A DNA stretch of 42,799 nt from Bacilli bacterium (GCA_034176765.1 JAXFTN010000141.1:1-42799), one strand, 5' to 3'; counted from the stretch's first letter, positions 52 to 36,236 are shown. Made by a program: numbers and translations. Notes: generated by a model from the letters alone, not told the origin.

Positions 52-864
52 TTATAAGATTTTTAATTCTTCTTTTTGTTCGACTTCTTTTATGAATTCA
101 AGAATGACTTTTAAAGGAATAGCATAATTCATAACAAGAGCATCGTTACTTCCACTAGTAACCATACCAAGTAGTTCTCCATTTTCATTAAATACAGGAC
201 CACCCGAATTACCATTTGTGACTAAAGCAGTAATCATCATATATTCATGGCCACTAATTTCACGCACATTATCAGCTACAATTCCATCAAGAATTGCTAG
301 GCCTTTTCCTTTACTATTTCCAATTGTATATACCTTTTCACCAGTAACACAATCGCCACTTGCAAATGAACAAGATTTATAATTGCTCTCATAAGCAAAA
401 TGTAAAATACATATATCAAGTTCTTTTGAAGCAAATACAAATTCTAATTCATATAATGTATCACTATCATTAAATTTAGCAAATACATTTTCGCATAAAG
501 TAGTATTTTCAGGATCATCTTTATCAAAAACAATATGTGCATTTGTGATTACATAATTTGAATTAATTATAAATCCAGTACCAGTAGAAGCCTTATTAGC
601 AAAATTACAATAAATTGCAACTACACTATCAATGTTATCTTTAAATATATCTTTAGCATCTTTTTTATTAGTTGCACTAGATATATTAGAAGTTTCTACT
701 CTAGATTTTTGAATATATTTATTCCTTTTAGATAAAGAAGAGAAAGTTTCATTACAAGAACTACATACATATGAATAAACAGTATCCTCTTCAACATTTT
801 CTTTAGAAATAACTTTAATATTTTTTGATCCACATATTGGACAAATATCATATATGAATTCCAT
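52..864 (-). CDS. Zinc-ribbon-fused trypsin-like (S1, Trypsin_2-type) serine protease
   Basis: N-terminal four-Cys ribbon CPICGS...CSSCN. Catalytic-triad contexts TNAHIV (His), LDICILH (Asp), GNSGGPVF (Ser). Start moved to ATG 864 (MEFIYD) because GAGGTG lies 6 nt upstream; the ORF-track GTG at 873 sits inside that SD. Follows the TIR gene stop by 12 nt. Confidence 0.8.
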   Translation of the reverse strand: MEFIYDICPICGSKNIKVISKENVEEDTVYSYVCSSCNETFSSLSKRNKYIQKSRVETSNISSATNKKDAKDIFKDNIDSVVAIYCNFANKASTGTGFIINSNYVITNAHIVFDKDDPENTTLCENVFAKFNDSDTLYELEFVFASKELDICILHFAYESNYKSCSFASGDCVTGEKVYTIGNSKGKGLAILDGIVADNVREISGHEYMMITALVTNGNSGGPVFNENGELLGMVTSGSNDALVMNYAIPLKVILEFIKEVEQKEELKIL

Positions 865-876
865 TTTAAACACCTC

Positions 877-3447
877 TTATTTTTTAGGTGAATACTCTTC
901 TACCAAGTGATCAAAGTACTCATATTTATTTTTATAAACAGCTAATTCTTGAAGTAATTTCTTTTCTTTTCTTCTTAAGTTAGCATATTTATTAAACATT
1001 GATTTAGAAGTAATCTTATTACCAATAAATATAAATAGGCGTAAGATAAATACAAAATCAAAGAATGCAGCGATACCTAAGAAAACTTTTCCCAATATTT
1101 CTTGTGCCATATTTGGAGAATGTAAGAAATCTTTAAAGATAAAGAATAGTACATTAAATAAAACTACAAAGAAAAGAAGTGCTTTTGGGAATGTATTTGT
1201 TTTTGACTTTTTATTAGCTTTATTGAACCTTTTCTCACATTTTTTCATTTCTGAATGTATTGAATTTTGAGTGGAGTAAACACTAAGAATATTATCTCTT
1301 TCTTGTTTAAATTCCATATCTTCTTCATGATATTTACGTTGTTTTTTAACAATATCCATAAAGAATTTTGTTTGTTCATCATCAGCATGATTTAACATAG
1401 GAATATACTCATCAAATGATAAAATATCACGTGAATATATTAGTTCCTTTTCATTTTTAACTTCACATTTCGCCATAATTATATAGTAATAAAATGTAGC
1501 TTCTGTAGAGTCAATAGAAGACAATAATTCAAATAAATATTTAGCTGCAGAGAATTTTCCTGTTTCTAAATAAATATTACCTTTTTTAAATATTTCACTA
1601 CTGAAACACTTAATATTTTCAGGATAAAATTTTAATAATTCTGTATAAAAATCTAAATTTAAAGAATCATACGGAATCGCTTTTAAAATTGCTTCAATTT
1701 CTTGTTTTTGTTGATCTTGATTTTGATATTTTAATAAATCTTTTAAACTCTCATAAGTTTTCAATTTATCAATATTAGCATCATATTCAACTAAAGAAGG
1801 ATCAAGAGTTGAACAAGTTGCAATTCTAATTAATGCTCGACGAGCAACATTATTTCCTTCGTCAACACTAATTAATGTATTTGCAATCTCACTTGCCTTA
1901 GAGAAATTACCGCTTGTTACTTCATGAGATAATAATTTAGTTAACCAATAAATATATTTATCAATGTCATCAATTGAAATAATTTTTACTAATATTTCGA
2001 ATAAAGTAAAATCATAATATTCGATAGCTTTTTGTATAAATTGTTCTAAGTAGTCATTTCTTTTACTATATTCATAGACAAAGATTATATCACATAACTT
2101 GTAAGCTTTTTGAGCATTTGCACCAAGAGGATTTTCTAATAATCTTTGGAAAAATTTATAAAATGTTTCAATAATTAAAAGGGCATAATTTTCACTGCAA
2201 TGACGCAATGCTTGTTCGATGAGTTCTAAATCAGTAACTTTTTGTAAATTCATTGTTAATACTGCATCAAGACCTTTTAACTTATTGATACATAAGAATT
2301 TTCTAAAAATAGCATCTCCATCAAGTGGCTCATTTTCTAGAATTTTATTAATGTGGTCAAGTCCTAAATCAAAGACGCCATTATCAATAAATTTATCTGC
2401 AATATTTAATTTTTCATTAACTGTATAAGATTTGCCTTCAATTGCTTCAGCTCCAATAATACGATTTGAAACATCATGCTCACTGCTTAATTTAGTAGCT
2501 TTCTTTCCAATCTCTTGTTCAATTACAGCTTTCTTTAATCCCTTTTTTCCACTAGGAGTATTTTTCAATACACTAGATACATAAGATTCAAGTGAATCCA
2601 TCCAAGTGATATTACTTACATCAATTGCTTGTAATGATTTTAAAGGATTAGGTAGTGTTCCAGGATTCAATCCTTTATATAAAAGAATTAATGAATTACT
2701 TGCTTTTTCTTTATTTACAATTCTTCTTGCAAATCTGGACCATTCATTTTTGACCCACGTTGAAGTAATATATTCTTCTTTAGAACCATAAATGATCATA
2801 ATTTTTGCTGTATTTAAGGCATTAAAAATATATGGTTCATATTTTTCACCATAACAATTCAAAGAAATTCGCGAAAAGAAAACATTATAACCTTTTGACT
2901 TTAAAAAATGATAAACTTCTTGAGCTTCATAACTATCACGTGTTCTTTCAATACCATTTTCAGTTTCGGTATCTTTATAAGAAATGAAAATATCATATGG
3001 TGGAAGCTTTGAAGCTTTCTCGACCCATTCAATACGATTCTTTTCAATTATTTCAGCTTGTTTTTCATAATAATCTTTTTCGTCTTTACTACCATAACGT
3101 AAAGCTAATTTATAGTTCTTATCTTCATATAATGAAGCATAACTTGTTGCATAACATGTAGGAATTTTCTTTCCATCATAATCGGTCTCATATTTGATAC
3201 CATATTTAGAAAGTAATAATCCCCAATAATTACGAGATGAATGTGGGTATTTAACAACTATATCTGAAAATAAATTTTCAGCTTCTTCAAAATTACATAA
3301 TCTTAATGCTTGAGAAGCATTGTAATAAAGGGTGTCTTCTTCATTTGATAATTCTTCTGGTTTATAGGCACCACATGCTTCACATACCCATTTCCCATTT
3401 TTATATACATATGTACCACCACATATATTACAAATATTTTTGTCCAT
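877..3447 (-). CDS. Zinc-ribbon / TIR domain / long helical-repeat protein with C-terminal membrane hairpin
   Basis: N-terminal CNICGG...CEACG ribbon followed by TPR-like helices. The central segment YDIFISYKDTE...NVFFSRISL...IMIIYGS...STWVKNEWSRF matches the TIR (TIR_2) strand-helix pattern, including a conserved Glu. A helical region of more than 400 aa follows. Two hydrophobic helices lie near the C-terminus (ALLFFVVLFNVLFFIF and VFLGIAAFFDFVFILRLFIFIG). GGGGGTG SD upstream. Confidence 0.8.
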   Translation of the reverse strand: MDKNICNICGGTYVYKNGKWVCEACGAYKPEELSNEEDTLYYNASQALRLCNFEEAENLFSDIVVKYPHSSRNYWGLLLSKYGIKYETDYDGKKIPTCYATSYASLYEDKNYKLALRYGSKDEKDYYEKQAEIIEKNRIEWVEKASKLPPYDIFISYKDTETENGIERTRDSYEAQEVYHFLKSKGYNVFFSRISLNCYGEKYEPYIFNALNTAKIMIIYGSKEEYITSTWVKNEWSRFARRIVNKEKASNSLILLYKGLNPGTLPNPLKSLQAIDVSNITWMDSLESYVSSVLKNTPSGKKGLKKAVIEQEIGKKATKLSSEHDVSNRIIGAEAIEGKSYTVNEKLNIADKFIDNGVFDLGLDHINKILENEPLDGDAIFRKFLCINKLKGLDAVLTMNLQKVTDLELIEQALRHCSENYALLIIETFYKFFQRLLENPLGANAQKAYKLCDIIFVYEYSKRNDYLEQFIQKAIEYYDFTLFEILVKIISIDDIDKYIYWLTKLLSHEVTSGNFSKASEIANTLISVDEGNNVARRALIRIATCSTLDPSLVEYDANIDKLKTYESLKDLLKYQNQDQQKQEIEAILKAIPYDSLNLDFYTELLKFYPENIKCFSSEIFKKGNIYLETGKFSAAKYLFELLSSIDSTEATFYYYIIMAKCEVKNEKELIYSRDILSFDEYIPMLNHADDEQTKFFMDIVKKQRKYHEEDMEFKQERDNILSVYSTQNSIHSEMKKCEKRFNKANKKSKTNTFPKALLFFVVLFNVLFFIFKDFLHSPNMAQEILGKVFLGIAAFFDFVFILRLFIFIGNKITSKSMFNKYANLRRKEKKLLQELAVYKNKYEYFDHLVEEYSPKK

Positions 3448-3460
3448 ACCTACACACCCC

Positions 3461-4597
3461 CTACATCAAACCATTTTTATAAAGTTCAAATTTTTCTAAA
3501 TCTTCTTTCGAAGTTTTTGGTTTATTTTTTGCAATAATTACATCACAATCATTTTGTGAAATTAATACTTCTTTTCCAGACTTAACTGATTTTTTATATG
3601 CCTCAGCACGAATCTTGTCACACATTGAAACTATATCGCCACCATTGTATCCTTCAGTTTTTTGTGCTAATAGATTAAAATCAAAATTTTCAGTTAAAGG
3701 AACGCCTTTCATAGCTTTTTTTATCATAAATAAACGTGCTTCAAAATCTGGTAAACCCACATATATATGTGTATCAAATCGACCACCACGGCACATTGCA
3801 GGATCTAAAGCCCATGGTCTATTAGTAGCACCAATTAATAGTAACATTTTACAAGTTTTAGATTTTTTAAATCCATCAACTTTTGTTAAAAATGTTGCAA
3901 CAAATCGAGCCATTTCAGCGTCAACTCCACCAGTTGAATCTTCTCTTTTTGATGCGACTGCATCCATTTCGTCAAAGAAAATAATAGCTCTTTCATTCTT
4001 TTGAGCCTCTTCAAAAAGTGCATCTAATTGTTTAGAACTTTCACCCATATATTTTGAAATTAAATCAGAACATTTTATTGAATAAAATTTTGCATCAACT
4101 TCACCAGCAATTGCTCGTGCAATAAATGTCTTACCAGTACCTGGTGGGCCATATAAAATGATTTTACCACCAGCCTTAATGTTATATTTTTTTGCTAATT
4201 CTGGATTTTTTAAAGGTTCAATTACATTATAAATAATTTGATCTTTTACATCTTGTAAACCTGCAACATCATTAAATGTAACTTTATCTTCTTTAGGAAT
4301 TTCAATAGCTTGAAATGTTTTTTCTTCCTCTTCAGAATCTCCTTTTTGTTTATTAGTTATATTTTTAACTGGACGTTTTTTTACACAGTTTTCTCTAACA
4401 AAAACAAGAATTTTTTCCGCTACTTTATGATATTCAGTTCTTACATCATAACTAGTTGCATCAATTGAAATTTTATTTGCTAATTCGGCTGCTTTTAAAA
4501 AGGCACTTCTAGCACTTTCAATGTCACCTTTAGCAAAATACTCTTTGCCTTGTTGATAAAAACTTTTATACGCCTCTACTACTGATCCATTATTCAT
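3461..4597 (-). CDS. Vps4-like AAA+ ATPase with N-terminal MIT/TPR-like three-helix domain
   Basis: Walker A ILYGPPGTGKT, Walker B IIFFDEMDA, second region of homology GATNRPWALDPAMCRGGRFD. SDLISKYMGES and the PW motif resemble the Vps4/katanin/spastin clade. The first ~75 aa (AYKSFYQQGKEYFAKGDIESARSAFLKAAELANK...EYHKVAEKILVFV) look like an MIT-type helical bundle. GGAGG SD. Confidence 0.8.
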   Translation of the reverse strand: MNNGSVVEAYKSFYQQGKEYFAKGDIESARSAFLKAAELANKISIDATSYDVRTEYHKVAEKILVFVRENCVKKRPVKNITNKQKGDSEEEEKTFQAIEIPKEDKVTFNDVAGLQDVKDQIIYNVIEPLKNPELAKKYNIKAGGKIILYGPPGTGKTFIARAIAGEVDAKFYSIKCSDLISKYMGESSKQLDALFEEAQKNERAIIFFDEMDAVASKREDSTGGVDAEMARFVATFLTKVDGFKKSKTCKMLLLIGATNRPWALDPAMCRGGRFDTHIYVGLPDFEARLFMIKKAMKGVPLTENFDFNLLAQKTEGYNGGDIVSMCDKIRAEAYKKSVKSGKEVLISQNDCDVIIAKNKPKTSKEDLEKFELYKNGLM

Positions 4598-4619: not shown

Positions 4620-5210
4620 TTATAATAATTTATTTTTTTCTGCTTCGATTTCTTTTGTTAAATCAATGTCACTTACTTTTGGCATTGAAGCATTTTGTCC
4701 TGTTAATTTAGCTCTAGCTGCATCAATCATTGGACGTACAGAAGCAATTTCAGCTTGAGAGCGTACTCTATTAGCTGGGTTAGATGATTTCATAACACTT
4801 CCCATTGCTTTTTGAGATATTTTAATTTGTCTCATATATTTAGCAATTTTTACATTTGCTCTTTGAATTTTTGCAATATTTGGCATCTTATTTTTATTGT
4901 TTGCCATGTTATTTAATGCATTTACAGCCATAGCCATATTTGTTGCAATTGAATTAGATACATTAATGATATCAAAATTTGCTTTTGTTTGAGTTAAACT
5001 AGAAATAACATCATTTAATTCCATCAATGCACTTAAAGCAACGTCATAACTTCCTTGGTCTCCATTAACTTCAGCCTCAGCAGCAATATGTGCATATTCT
5101 TGTCTTTTTGCTTTTAATTCGTTGATTTGATCATTGAAAATTTGCATTTGCTCATCACGTTGCATTTGAGCCATGATTTCTTTTTCTGCTTTTGTCTTAA
5201 AAAATGCCAT
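4620..5210 (-). CDS. ESCRT-III (Snf7/CHMP)-like helical protein
   Basis: 196 aa, all-helical by composition, with a basic N-terminus MAFFKTKAEK and a long heptad hairpin region. The Met/Asn/Ala-rich segment AMAVNALNNMANNKNKMPNIAKIQRANVKIAKYM resembles the CHMP alpha3-alpha4 region. Acidic amphipathic C-terminus DIDLTKEIEAEKNKLL. The ATG overlaps the upstream stop (TAATG). Confidence 0.6.
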   Translation of the reverse strand: MAFFKTKAEKEIMAQMQRDEQMQIFNDQINELKAKRQEYAHIAAEAEVNGDQGSYDVALSALMELNDVISSLTQTKANFDIINVSNSIATNMAMAVNALNNMANNKNKMPNIAKIQRANVKIAKYMRQIKISQKAMGSVMKSSNPANRVRSQAEIASVRPMIDAARAKLTGQNASMPKVSDIDLTKEIEAEKNKLL

Positions 5211-6223
5211 TATTTTGTACCCCCGACTTCTAATTCTTCACTAGCATCAATTCCTGAATCCATTTCTTTTTGATTACTTTTCAATTCTTCTTTTTCTTTT
5301 TTCTTACGAAGAAGTTGTTCTTTATAAGCTAAAGCATCTTGAGAAACAGATATTGTTGATGTGTTAACTCCAAATACTTTTTCATCCATATTTTTTGTTC
5401 TTTCAGCAATTAATTGAGTATCTTTTTCCATTCTCTTTAAAATAGATATAGCTTTCTCAGGCTCAGAAATAACTGATTTTAATCTAGACATATTTAGAAG
5501 CGCTCTTGCTTTTCCTAAATCTTCTAACGAATAATCACTTTCTACTACAATCTCATTAGCATTGCTATAAATTAAATCTAATAAATTAAAGCAAGCTGAA
5601 TAATTAGCTTTTCTAACATTGAGCATATCTAATTTACTCTTTAAAGAAGATATCTTACGATATAATTCATTAATACGACGTTCATTCTCTTCTTTTAGCA
5701 TTAAACTATCTAATTCGTTTAAATCTTTTTCTAATGAATAAATATCTTTTTCTAATCTTTGTTCATTCGCTACAAATTGATTTTTAATAGTTGCTAATTC
5801 ATCAAGTCTATTTTGTAATTTCTTTCTAGACCATGTCATTTTTTCTTTTTCGGTAGTACCAATTTCTTCACTATTCATATCACCTTGGAGTACAGATTTC
5901 CAAACATCAACTGAATAAGTAAGATTTGATACACCTTCTTCAAGTCTAGTTACTAAATCTTGATTAGCTAATTCATTTAATTCAACGACTTGTTTTGAAA
6001 CTGTTTCAGCAATACTTGAAATATCTTCTTTACCAGTTCCTACACAATTATCAAGTCCTGAAATGGCATCTTTTAATTCTACAGCTAATGCATCGACTGC
6101 ATCTTTATCTAAATAACTATTTACTTTATGAGTTTCAAGTTTAAAACATACTTTCTTTAAATCTTTTAATGCTTTGTCTTTAAGAGCATTATTATTTTTA
6201 ATTGATGGACTATATTTTTTCAT
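5210..6223 (-). CDS. 337-aa coiled-coil protein, possible second ESCRT-III/PspA-superfamily subunit or adaptor
   Basis: Long heptad-rich helices (KLQNRLDELATIKNQFVANEQRLEKDIYSLEKDLNELDSL...INELYRKISSLKSKLDMLNVRKANY) and an acidic C-terminal tail DSGIDASEELEVGG. GGAGGA SD. Its stop overlaps the next start. Confidence 0.6.
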   Translation of the reverse strand: MKKYSPSIKNNNALKDKALKDLKKVCFKLETHKVNSYLDKDAVDALAVELKDAISGLDNCVGTGKEDISSIAETVSKQVVELNELANQDLVTRLEEGVSNLTYSVDVWKSVLQGDMNSEEIGTTEKEKMTWSRKKLQNRLDELATIKNQFVANEQRLEKDIYSLEKDLNELDSLMLKEENERRINELYRKISSLKSKLDMLNVRKANYSACFNLLDLIYSNANEIVVESDYSLEDLGKARALLNMSRLKSVISEPEKAISILKRMEKDTQLIAERTKNMDEKVFGVNTSTISVSQDALAYKEQLLRKKKEKEELKSNQKEMDSGIDASEELEVGGTK

Positions 6224-6237
6224 ACATTATTCCTCCA

Positions 6238-6891
6238 TTAAGCTACTTTGCTTCTAATTCTTTCAAGATCATCACTATTAATATGAATACCTTCAACTGT
6301 TAAAGAATTTAATTTAAGACCCATTGACTTAAATGATTTTTCTTCACATAAAGAGCTGAACAATCTTTCTTGTAATTCCTTTGCTTTTAAAGTTGCATTG
6401 AAGACTGAAACTTCTTTATCAACTAAAAGATTATTTAATATAGGAGCACCCACTGATTTAATTACTGAGATTGTCTTTTCTCTTAAATCATCAATAGTAA
6501 CAACATTGAATCCAGAATATGCGGCAATCAATCGACCAAAATCTTCAATTTCGAGAGCGTATTTTCCATTTGCTCCAGCTTTATACAATTCATTTTGATG
6601 ATCGTTTTTGATTTCAATATTTCCAAATCCCCATGCAAGTAAAGGTAAAGAATTAATTAATATAAAACATACTTTGACATTTTGCCCTAATAAATCTTTT
6701 CCATATTCTTTTAATAAGTTAATATGATTACAATTATCAACTCTGAAACTTAATTTTTCATTAATATATACGAAACCTTTATAACCATTAGGAACTGTAA
6801 GAAAAACGCTTTTATCAATTTTAGCAGAAGGTGAAAATTGAACAACACAATCAGTTAAATAACTACTAGGTGCCAATTCATTTGTTTTCAT
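6238..6891 (-). CDS. Divergent SPFH/Band-7-like protein (YdjI-type fold, no zinc ribbons)
   Basis: Colinear block similarity by eye to the two YdjI-like proteins in this window. LTVPNGYKGFVYINEKL matches LVVREGQRAIFINKGKL. VKVCFILINS...WGFG matches ADIYFIQTK...WKTP. GANGKYALEIEDFG matches EAEGKFSFKVTEPS. MGLKLNSLTVEGIHIN matches LGLDVCGLYIENIVLP. GGGGGA SD. Confidence 0.6.
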   Translation of the reverse strand: MKTNELAPSSYLTDCVVQFSPSAKIDKSVFLTVPNGYKGFVYINEKLSFRVDNCNHINLLKEYGKDLLGQNVKVCFILINSLPLLAWGFGNIEIKNDHQNELYKAGANGKYALEIEDFGRLIAAYSGFNVVTIDDLREKTISVIKSVGAPILNNLLVDKEVSVFNATLKAKELQERLFSSLCEEKSFKSMGLKLNSLTVEGIHINSDDLERIRSKVA

Positions 6892-6906: not shown

Positions 6907-7254
6907 TTATTTCTTTTCAATAATTTCGCAAAGTTGATTTAATGTTGCTTCACTAAGATCATCTTTAGTCAAAGCAAAAATTAATTTCTTTTGCGTTTCA
7001 CTTAGTTCAGATAAATCAACTTTTACAGAATCCGAAGTAGCAGCAATTGCATCACGTAATGACTTGACTTCTTTTTCCGTTAAATCATAATTTTTGCAAA
7101 CAATGGCATCAAAATTCTTTGGAACATTTCGTTTGCCATTTTCAATAGCAGATAAATAAGAAGAAGATAATTCTAGTTTCTCAGCCATTGTTCTCATACT
7201 GTCTCCAGAATTAATACGAATAATTCGAAGAACTTTACCTAATTGAGTAATCAT
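6907..7254 (-). CDS. XRE-family helix-turn-helix transcriptional regulator, first gene of the operon
   Basis: LGKVLRIIRINSGDSMRTMAEKLELSSSYLSAIENGKRNVP is a classic XRE/Cro-C1 HTH. GAGGGGG SD. Promoter immediately upstream. Confidence 0.85.
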   Translation of the reverse strand: MITQLGKVLRIIRINSGDSMRTMAEKLELSSSYLSAIENGKRNVPKNFDAIVCKNYDLTEKEVKSLRDAIAATSDSVKVDLSELSETQKKLIFALTKDDLSEATLNQLCEIIEKK

Positions 7255-7283: not shown

Positions 7284-7312
7284 ATTATACCAACATTTAA
7301 ATTGATTGTCTA
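7284..7312 (-). promoter_or_regulatory. Sigma-A-like promoter of the seven-gene operon
   Basis: On the minus strand: TAGACA (7312-7307), a 17-nt spacer, then TGgTATAAT extended -10 (TATAAT at 7289-7284), about 30 nt upstream of the XRE ATG. Confidence 0.55.
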
Positions 7313-9263: not shown

Positions 9264-9354
9264 TGGCGGAGCAAGAGAGACTCGAACTCTCGCACCAGTT
9301 ACCCGATCTACTTCCTTAGCAGGGAAGCCCCTTCACCAACTTGGGTATTGCTCC
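9264..9354 (-). tRNA. tRNA-Ser (anticodon GCU), encoded CCA
   Basis: The reverse complement reads GGAGCAATACCCAAGTTGGTGAAGGGGCTTCCCTGCTAAGGAAG...GGTGCGAGAGTTCGAGTCTCTCTTGCTCCGCCA. 7-bp acceptor stem, CTTCC/GGAAG anticodon stem with loop CTGCTAA, long variable arm, GTTCGAGTC T-loop. Confidence 0.9.
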
Positions 9355-16194: not shown

Positions 16195-16285
16195 GGAGAA
16201 ATACTCAAGTGGTTGAAGAGACTAGTTTCGAAAACTAGCAGGAGGTGCAAGCCTCGCGAGGGTTCAAATCCCTCTTTCTCCGCCA
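16195..16285 (+). tRNA. tRNA-Ser (anticodon CGA), encoded CCA
   Basis: GGAGAAATACTCAAGTGGTTGAAGAGACTAGTTTCGAAAACTAG...GAGGGTTCAAATCCCTCTTTCTCCGCCA. CTAGT/ACTAG anticodon stem with loop TTCGAAA. Long variable arm. Confidence 0.9.
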
Positions 16286-36145: not shown

Positions 36146-36236
36146 GGAGAAATACCCAAGAGGCTGAAGGGGCTGGCTTGGAAAGCTAGTAGATGGGTAA
36201 CACTATGCGAGGGTTCGAATCCCTCTTTCTCCGCCA
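36146..36236 (+). tRNA. tRNA-Ser (anticodon GGA), encoded CCA
   Basis: GGAGAAATACCCAAGAGGCTGAAGGGGCTGGCTTGGAAAGCTAG...GAGGGTTCGAATCCCTCTTTCTCCGCCA. Anticodon loop TTGGAAA. Long variable arm. Confidence 0.9.

Follow-up and report, generated by a model that had tools for sequence, protein, structure and literature searches.

A membrane-anchored zinc ribbon-TIR protein encoded in a conserved operon of gut Bacillota beside a Vps4/CdvC-like ATPase, a probable ESCRT-III-like protein and an SPFH protein

Why should a TIR protein be tethered to the membrane and encoded next to a Vps4-like ATPase? This question is raised by a locus near the start of a 42,799-nucleotide stretch of DNA from a Bacilli bacterium (GCA_034176765.1, JAXFTN010000141.1:1-42799), which is referred to below, at its full length, as the window. 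The gene concerned was predicted, from the DNA alone, to encode an N-terminal zinc ribbon, TPR-like helices, a TIR domain with a glutamate at the position of the NAD+ hydrolase (NADase) catalytic residue, a long helical-repeat region and a two-helix membrane hairpin. The analysis presented here reveals that it belongs to a conserved operon of seven genes, which include those of a soluble SPFH protein and of a probable ESCRT-III-like protein, here called E3. As a working explanation, to which we assign a probability of about 0.4, we propose that an SPFH/ESCRT-III-like scaffold, once assembled, gates the activity of the TIR domain.

Architecture of the TIR protein and the glutamate of its WxxxE motif

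The TIR gene and its parts, in window coordinates, are as follows:

877..3447, minus strand: whole open reading frame (ORF), 856 aa, comprising zinc ribbon, TPR-like helices, TIR domain, linker, TPR-like solenoid and transmembrane (TM) hairpin; a single ORF with an exact coordinate match
3358..3447, minus strand: N-terminal C4 zinc ribbon, aa 1–30 (C6, C9, C22, C25); invariant cysteines, strands in the AlphaFold2 (AF2) model
3010..3357, minus strand: helical TPR-like domain and β-hairpin, aa 31–146; AF2 model, weak TPR_14 match, ~55% identity family-wide
2557..3009, minus strand: TIR domain, aa 147–297; Pfam TIR_2, profile match to solved TIR domains, AF2 topology
2743..2745, minus strand: codon of E235, the glutamate of WxxxE at the catalytic position of NADase TIR domains; homologue alignment
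2428..2556, minus strand: probably disordered linker, aa 298–340, with invariant K306 and K316; low model confidence, alignment
1213..2427, minus strand: cytoplasmic TPR-like α-solenoid followed by two long helices, aa 341–745; AF2 model, Foldseek
1012..1197, minus strand: two-helix membrane hairpin, aa 751–812; Kyte-Doolittle hydropathy, K/R-rich flanks
877..1011, minus strand: basic C-terminal cytoplasmic helix tail, aa 813–856, and stop codon; hydropathy, AF2 model

The Pfam search identified the TIR_2 domain (PF13676) in residues 153–279 with E=4.4e-11 and 43.8 bits (cut-off: 28), and the AF2 model of the protein (mean predicted local distance difference test value, pLDDT, of 85.6) exhibits a regular alternation of β and α elements over residues 150–296, with strands at 153–156, 189–191, 216–221, 253–257 and 274–276 and helices at 170–184, 204–213, 230–244 and 282–296. 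In the N-terminal part, the model comprises the two strands of the zinc ribbon (12–16 and 19–22), helices within 36–81, a β-hairpin (84–98) and helices within 110–146. The four cysteines of the ribbon are kept in every one of 120 homologues and its profile shows weak matches to the L37Ae and rubredoxin ribbons; TPR_14 of Pfam matches weakly aa 46–72. Past the TIR domain, pLDDT falls to 53–57 around residues 321–340 (below 50 at 322–327), and residues 341–745 are modelled as an all-helical region with pLDDT mostly above 85, for which Foldseek identified TPR superhelices (CTR9, OGT, CTPR, APC/C; E=6e-6 to 1e-3). When the full AF2 model was used as the query, the top 50 Foldseek matches comprised TPR proteins only, with no TIR structure. 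At the level of full-length sequence, phmmer found no match in the PDB, a profile of seven sequences gave only a weak match to a TLR (E=0.038), and no PADLOC model matched the TIR protein.

The hydropathy plot reveals two hydrophobic segments near the C-terminus (~753–775 and ~787–810; values above 1.6 at 751–777 and 783–812), separated by a loop of ~11 residues and flanked on both sides by K/R-rich sequence. According to the positive-inside rule, both termini and the whole soluble part should therefore be cytoplasmic. The hairpin is kept in the homologues P0002, P0004 and P0005 (P-labels for proteins, like the labels L001–L047 for loci used below, are internal to this analysis). A secreted or extracellular TIR domain was considered and ruled out, as the protein lacks a signal peptide and its hairpin has basic sequence on either side. 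Thus, the order of domains given in the original prediction is present in full, from the ribbon to the C-terminal hairpin, and its TIR assignment passes the Pfam threshold.

The predicted catalytic glutamate deserves separate attention. The motif TWVKNEWSRF (nt 2731–2760) holds W231 and E235, and W231, E235, W236 and R238 are 100% conserved in the 120 homologues. A profile restricted to the TIR domain, compared with solved TIR domains, yielded matches between 3.5e-6 and 1e-3 (TLR15 and TLR2: 3.5e-6, RUN1: 5.9e-5, Roq1: 9e-5; AbTIR weak), in which E235 is aligned onto the catalytic glutamate of two plant NADases, found in the WCLDEL motif of RUN1 and in WCLEEL of Roq1. We take the RUN1 residue, counted on the alignment, to be the catalytic E100. 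The glutamate noticed in the original prediction is thus both invariant in the family and placed on its counterpart in RUN1 and Roq1.

The operon and its recurrence in gut Bacillota

The TIR gene lies between the following elements, the protease gene being downstream and all others upstream:

52..873, minus strand: zinc ribbon (C4) and trypsin-like serine protease, cytoplasmic, 273 aa; Trypsin_2, E=2e-23
3461..4597, minus strand: Vps4/CdvC-like AAA ATPase, 378 aa, with a TPR/MIT-like N-domain; Pfam AAA, CdvC model
4620..5210, minus strand: E3, 196 aa, ESCRT-III-like helical-hairpin protein; AF2 model, Foldseek, hhalign
5210..6223, minus strand: coiled-coil protein, 337 aa, of no recognisable family; library searches
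6238..6891, minus strand: soluble YdjI-type SPFH protein (Band_7_1); 26.6 bits against a cut-off of 24
6907..7254, minus strand: XRE-family helix-turn-helix (HTH) regulator, first gene of the operon; library searches
7284..7312, minus strand: promoter-like site, TAGACA, 17-nt spacer, TG-TATAAT; consensus match alone, 11/12

The seven genes are separated by gaps of 3–22 bp or overlap, and the HTH gene is closely preceded by the best promoter-like site of the region (11/12, with an extended -10). The TIR gene begins 13 bp downstream of the ATPase gene, directly after it as originally noted, and among the seven encoded proteins its product alone has TM segments. The Band_7_1 scores of relatives of the SPFH protein are 36–37 bits (up to 36.8). 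The profile of the coiled-coil protein matched in the PDB only unrelated short coiled coils and helical proteins, and hhalign comparisons with E3 and with ESCRT-III remained at noise level.

The association goes beyond adjacency. The gene set recurs in ~35 loci of gut Bacillota, down to 30% identity of the TIR protein and with rearranged gene order, and it is co-inherited in at least 30 gut bacterial species. A scan with the E3 alignment, limited to one genome per species, returned 32 loci, all from gut or rumen metagenome-assembled genomes (MAGs) of Clostridia, Christensenellales, Borkfalkia, Bacilli and Anaeroplasmataceae. The order HTH–SPFH–coiled coil–E3 is invariant across these loci, and at least one zinc ribbon-TIR protein (411–2487 aa) is encoded after E3 in ~28 of the ~30 loci with enough downstream sequence. 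All seven genes in unchanged order are found in L001–L004 (TIR proteins 51–54% identical); L005 and L006 (30%) also have all seven, with the TIR gene ahead of the ATPase gene and with unrelated flanks. In L008, likewise from a 'Bacilli bacterium', six of the seven proteins are 94–99% identical to those of the window and the protease 84%, and this locus probably comes from the same species as the window. L047 has the same gene order as the window, with a 1480-aa protein combining TIR and leucine-rich repeats (LRRs) at the place of the TIR protein. Some operons carry tandem zinc ribbon-TIR paralogues, four in L036:8624-14700 and three in L040:7116-13705, with C-terminal parts of different kinds (polytopic, or with a TM2 domain or a double zinc ribbon). 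Throughout, E3 is the best-conserved protein of the operon (66–84% identity), and conservation is lowest in the TPR part of the TIR protein (21–49%).

Because of this recurrence, chance adjacency to the ATPase was rejected, and the association of TIR protein, ATPase and ESCRT-like neighbour suggested by the original prediction gains a firm comparative basis. A broader version of the same doubt would have the TIR protein act alone, beside an unrelated membrane-stress operon. Some family members are indeed encoded alone (L007, L041, L045), and when five members were chosen regardless of context, three were found in such an operon (L040, L046, L047) and two (L041, L045) were singletons amid metabolic genes. 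Linkage in nearly all E3 loci with enough sequence, at 30–70% identity, with rearranged order and varied flanks, together with the short intergenic gaps, makes such independence very improbable.

Several loci depart from the common plan. In L038:8633-10255 (+), from a Bacilli MAG, the operon has no TIR protein and encodes in its place a 540-aa protein composed of a ~95-aa N-domain common to a Vps4_C-bearing second type of ATPase described below (BLAST E=1e-15), a RuvB-like AAA+ domain and a HEPN-like end with the Rx4H motif RNEMVH (HEPN_RiboL-PSP: 25.2 bits, under the cut-off of 28.4). This is an effector-type swap of TIR for a HEPN-like domain. L034:10586-11878 encodes the same N-domain and RuvB-like ATPase as L038, with no HEPN part. 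In L020:8582-16579 (Clostridia MAG), HTH–SPFH–coiled coil–E3 is kept, TIR, ATPase and protease genes are absent within 8 kb downstream, and genes for a sugar-acid dehydratase and a rhamnosidase occupy this region; the core of four genes may be capable of existing by itself. In L028:5895-6780 the TIR gene of the operon is split into overlapping fragments of 224 and 101 aa, which may represent a frameshifted pseudogene or an assembly error. L044:2971-8016, an IMG/VR contig, encodes a canonical YdjI-like SPFH protein (Band_7_1: 127 bits) with a double zinc ribbon, adjoined by a small TM protein, a 153-aa HEPN-like protein and a zinc ribbon-TIR-TPR-DUF6273 protein; it is an independent association of SPFH and TIR without E3. 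Some copies of the operon adjoin mobile-element genes, and the flanks of others consist purely of housekeeping genes. The mobile-element genes include a VirD4-type coupling protein, an ArdC-like protein and DUF3801 at L046:119-3339, and a resolvase and a phage integrase at L047:16271-23582.

The upstream ATPase has a single classical AAA cassette (Pfam AAA, E=3.8e-40, and AAA_lid_3) and aligns end to end with the NCBIfam CdvC model (aa 23–373 against positions 24–364 of 370), with a score of 183.7 bits that is far under the equivalog cut-off of 650. Its N-terminus forms a TPR-like helix pair (aa 12–39) and a third helix, and the profile of this domain matches consensus TPR proteins alone and not solved MIT domains. 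The C-terminal Vps4_C helix scores 16.9 bits in the window (cut-off 21.3) and 21.6 in the L005 orthologue. Among the characteristic motifs, 'ATNRPWxLD' and the C-terminal 'DLEKFExYxNG' are presumably Vps4/katanin-like and the 'RGGRFD' of the second region of homology presumably Cdc48/PAN/FtsH-like. Sister operons encode, directly after E3, a second, paralogous type of ATPase with higher Vps4_C scores (22.2–26.0 bits), which is longer than the type found in the window (406–483 against ~380 aa) and has a different helical N-domain. It is present in L009, L019, L022–L024, L027 and L029, and L032 carries both types adjacent to each other (L032:8595-9734 and L032:9749-10969). The original designation of the window ATPase as Vps4-like thus agrees with the three-helix N-domain, the single cassette and the end-to-end CdvC alignment; it is qualified by the sub-threshold Vps4_C and CdvC scores and by the RGGRFD motif.

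The gene downstream of the TIR gene encodes a protease with neither a TM segment nor a signal peptide, whose zinc-ribbon cysteines (C11, C14, C37, C40) and catalytic triad (H113, D153, S223) are kept in 19–20 of 20 homologues. Its presence permits another explanation, in which ATPase and protease would work as an ATP-dependent pair (as in IetA-IetS, or FtsH in the HflK/C SPFH cage) and a putative signal-triggered cut in the linker would release the zinc ribbon and the TIR domain as a soluble fragment, able to oligomerise and to consume NAD+. The two genes are adjacent in most loci (L005, L011–L018, L034, L038) and enclose the TIR gene in the window as well as in L047, PADLOC ranks IetA first for the ATPase (E=1.4e-44), the low-confidence linker has its invariant lysines, and SPFH proteins partner proteases (HflK/C-FtsH, stomatin-NfeD). 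Proteolytic release is nonetheless quite unlikely: the protease is absent from many loci that keep the SPFH, coiled-coil, E3, ATPase and TIR genes (though several such contigs end early), the ATPase is far under the NCBIfam IteA cut-off (127.5 against 510 bits), and IetS belongs to the subtilases and is not trypsin-like. The Trypsin_2 assignment and the IteA score also rule out membership of the anti-phage IetAS system as such, in spite of the shared combination of a classical AAA ATPase with a serine protease. The window protease differs from IetS also in its zinc ribbon, and the operon has five more conserved genes.

E3 has no sequence match in Pfam, NCBIfam or the PDB; it is represented by 39 sequences among 1.84 billion clustered proteins and was not found in viral contigs. 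The AF2 model (mean pLDDT 73) comprises helices 7–49, 52–102, 112–128, 132–141, 152–169 and 184–195, that is, a hairpin (45–50 residues) and, after it, four short helices, which is an ESCRT-III-like layout. The near-invariant N-terminus MAFFKTKxEKE resembles MGLFGKTQEK, which we take to be the N-terminal membrane-insertion motif of CHMP3. At the other end, a conserved helix 'L..EIE.EK.K.L' could, judging from the sequence, serve as a handle for the ATPase similar to an MIT-interacting motif.

The zinc ribbon-TIR family and the possible role of the scaffold

More than 1000 relatives of the zinc ribbon-TIR module were found in a large protein collection. Only a few of them are related over the full length (P0001–P0005, 51–99% identity; P0022, P0036 and P0017, ~30%), and the remaining ones match the first ~295 residues alone, with 50–58% identity. 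Among 119 homologues analyzed, none has a TM segment before residue 290 and 107 have one or more after residue 300, the first being located at 300–375 in 54 proteins, at 376–650 in 33 and beyond 650 in 20; 12 proteins have none. In 67 cases a single TM segment is followed by more than 150 residues, and 26 homologues are polytopic. The regions past the membrane often contain BspA-type LRRs; others have Listeria-Bacteroides (Flg_new) repeats, SBP_bac_3, DUF6273, Sel1 or TM2 domains. The positions of the TM segments and the shared first ~295 residues identify zinc ribbon-TPR-TIR as a module conserved at the cytoplasmic N-terminus of membrane proteins of N-in/C-out topology. Tethering to the membrane is the rule rather than the exception in this family, and the window protein is a variant in which the place of the ectodomain is taken by a TPR solenoid, located in the cytoplasm, and an anchoring hairpin, i.e. 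a new architectural form of a known domain family. The anchoring that set this protein apart, in the original prediction, from the usually soluble TIR effectors of bacteria is therefore real, but as a contrast it is weakened by its being usual among the relatives.

TIR NADases are switched on by oligomerisation, as is known for SARM1, AbTir, TIR-SAVED and SPARTA. In the proposed mechanism, the TIR protein would anchor the seven-gene module in the membrane and would also be its output. Its zinc ribbon, its TPR solenoid or both would recruit to the membrane the SPFH, coiled-coil and E3 proteins, which are soluble, in a manner parallel to the docking of YdjI and PspA by YdjG and YdjH in Bacillus subtilis. 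E3 and the SPFH protein would build a higher-order scaffold, probably at a perturbed membrane, which would bring the tethered TIR domains together, and the TIR-TIR contact would lead to cleavage of NAD+ via E235 and hence to NAD+ depletion or a nucleotide signal, acting perhaps in abortive defence or as an envelope-stress alarm. The MIT-like N-domain of the ATPase may bind the C-terminal helix of E3, take the scaffold apart and reset the system, with the protease as a putative second, proteolytic level of control. The HEPN-like swap in L038, the HEPN-like neighbour in L044 and the conjugation, integrase and resolvase genes adjoining some loci are hints of an effector role.

A number of observations weigh against gating by a scaffold. 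The TIR domains of TLR2 and TLR15, the top matches among solved structures, carry the same glutamate, and to our knowledge they are not known as NADases; because they share this residue, the glutamate of WxxxE is to be regarded as necessary, not sufficient, for NADase activity. Searches of PADLOC, NCBIfam and PHROGs did not assign the TIR, E3, coiled-coil and SPFH proteins to any system. The Snf7 and PspA_IM30 families of Pfam match neither the window E3 nor 12 of its relatives, even at E<=10; the top Foldseek matches of E3 (CdvB2, PspA, CdvB, Asgard ESCRT-IIIB, Vipp1) are weak (E>=0.58); and the hhalign comparison of E3 with ESCRT-III aligned 107 columns in register with P=4.3e-4 at a probability of 34%, which indicates weak homology. 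The slow evolution of E3 is unlike that of an arms-race component, the operon is flanked by housekeeping genes in the three lineages first compared, and paralogues with ectodomains (LRR, Flg_new) are scattered singly amid metabolic genes, which fits a receptor or surface family better than a suicide effector.

With respect to E3, controls consisting of the reversed E3 sequence and of the coiled-coil protein gave P ~0.1–0.17 against the same ESCRT-III alignment. The seeds of that alignment (CHMP3, CHMP2A, CHMP1B, Snf7) were validated by a deep search, which returned vertebrate CHMP3 almost exclusively and added little diversity. Comparison of E3 with E. coli PspA remained at noise level. E3 is probably ESCRT-III-like, and its homology to ESCRT-III is suggestive only.

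In a different reading of the operon, zinc ribbon-TPR-TIR would be the shared cytoplasmic docking or signalling domain of a large family of N-in/C-out receptors and surface proteins, and the SPFH/ESCRT-III-like/Vps4-like machine would cluster them, sort them, bud them off or turn them over. The TIR domain would then be mainly an interaction scaffold or a non-lethal signalling enzyme, and the window protein an adaptor that connects the TIR domains of receptors with the machine. We regard this as possible, though on balance doubtful. It would account for the abundance of a ~55% identical and always N-terminal module, for its position ahead of the first TM segment, for the diverse ectodomains, for paralogues that occur both in tandem and singly, for the housekeeping flanks in several lineages and for the slow evolution of E3 as a structural part of the machine. 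Archaeal ESCRT loci likewise join Vps4, ESCRT-III and SPFH proteins with zinc-ribbon/TM cargo-like proteins (PMC10936438). The window protein, however, has no ectodomain, the WxxxE motif and other TIR residues are kept in 120 of 120 homologues, beyond the needs of docking, and the TIR-less HEPN variant and the adjoining mobile elements favour a conflict system.

A more far-reaching reading, in our opinion somewhat unlikely, is that gut Bacillota possess a true bacterial counterpart of the archaeal and eukaryotic ESCRT-III/Vps4 machine, operating with SPFH scaffolds, whose clients or triggers are the many inverted 'Toll-like' TM proteins (variable ectodomain, TM, cytoplasmic TIR), either in a TIR-based transmembrane immune or sensing pathway or in a pathway of cargo sorting or vesicle budding for surface proteins tagged by TIR; the window protein, having no ectodomain, would be an adaptor that connects TIR signalling to the polymer.

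Relation to known systems

No account of an operon of this type was found among the papers searched for SPFH/AAA/TIR or 'bacterial Vps4' systems, and as a whole it appears to be undescribed. The enzymatic TIR proteins (RUN1/Roq1, SARM1, AbTir, ThsB) have the same TIR_2 fold, with the WxxxE glutamate aligned to that of RUN1 and Roq1; the window TIR domain differs in its surroundings, with a zinc ribbon and TPR-like helices ahead of it and a TPR solenoid and membrane hairpin behind it, and its operon has no ThsA-type effector, SAVED, STING or Argonaute partner. Pfam likewise revealed no SLOG, Macro, SIR2 or caspase-like partner among the operon genes. A Thoeris type was ruled out, as there is no ThsA-type effector and no PADLOC match and the NCBIfam model ThcB4 gives 16.5 bits, far under its cut-off of 220; a preprint surveying the types of Thoeris lists no SPFH or AAA type. 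The LRR-bearing relatives in sister operons share with Toll-like receptors the combination of a cytoplasmic TIR domain, one TM segment and a large LRR ectodomain. Their order is inverted (TIR N-terminal), their LRRs are BspA-type and the window protein has no ectodomain; the likeness is one of convergent architecture, not orthology.

The closest parallel for the membrane side of the operon is the B. subtilis pspA-ydjGHI (samGHI) locus, in which the soluble YdjI and PspA reach the membrane through the membrane proteins YdjG and YdjH (PMC8581546). Both loci encode a soluble Band_7_1 SPFH protein, a candidate polymer like those of the ESCRT-III superfamily and a membrane protein, needed for recruitment in B. 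subtilis (PMC8581546), that has a CxxC motif close to its N-terminus. The CxxC of YdjG is suggested by the ydjG primer printed there, which would translate to MIISYKCPNC. On the other hand, E3 is not a PspA_IM30 protein, the window has no TPM-domain protein (YdjH), and it adds the ATPase, TIR, protease and coiled-coil genes.

Archaeal CdvB/CdvC loci, including the SPFH 'Meth_adaptin' loci, are similar in that a hairpin protein is encoded beside a single-cassette AAA ATPase; the three helices of the N-domain and the candidate Vps4_C-type helix of the window ATPase also have counterparts there, and archaeal Vps4/ESCRT-III loci also hold coiled-coil proteins (PMC10936438). The window locus differs in being bacterial, in the RGGRFD motif and low CdvC score of its ATPase, in having no ESCRT-I/II-like parts and in its coupling to a TIR protein and a serine protease. 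According to two recent publications, bacteria lack a Vps4-type partner of ESCRT-III-type proteins (PMC7619361, PMC10936438). Ravi et al. described Vps4-like ATPases paired with a TPR-6TM protein, as sporadic transfers alone (PMC11237479). Against this background, the operon is a concrete and conserved candidate for a bacterial Vps4-like/ESCRT-III-type pair, linked to TIR, the hallmark domain of innate immunity in organisms ranging from bacteria to humans, and is relevant both to bacterial TIR immunity and to the evolution of ESCRT. If the TIR domain is gated by a membrane-bound polymer, the trigger would be of a new kind, the state of the membrane rather than a soluble ligand. If instead the TIR module marks surface receptors for the machine, an unrecognised membrane-protein pathway would exist in abundant uncultured gut bacteria.

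Three tRNA-Ser genes were also found in the window, at 9264–9354 (minus strand), 16195–16285 (plus strand) and 36146–36236 (plus strand), with the anticodons gct, cga and gga, respectively; the first of them lies ~2 kb upstream of the operon.

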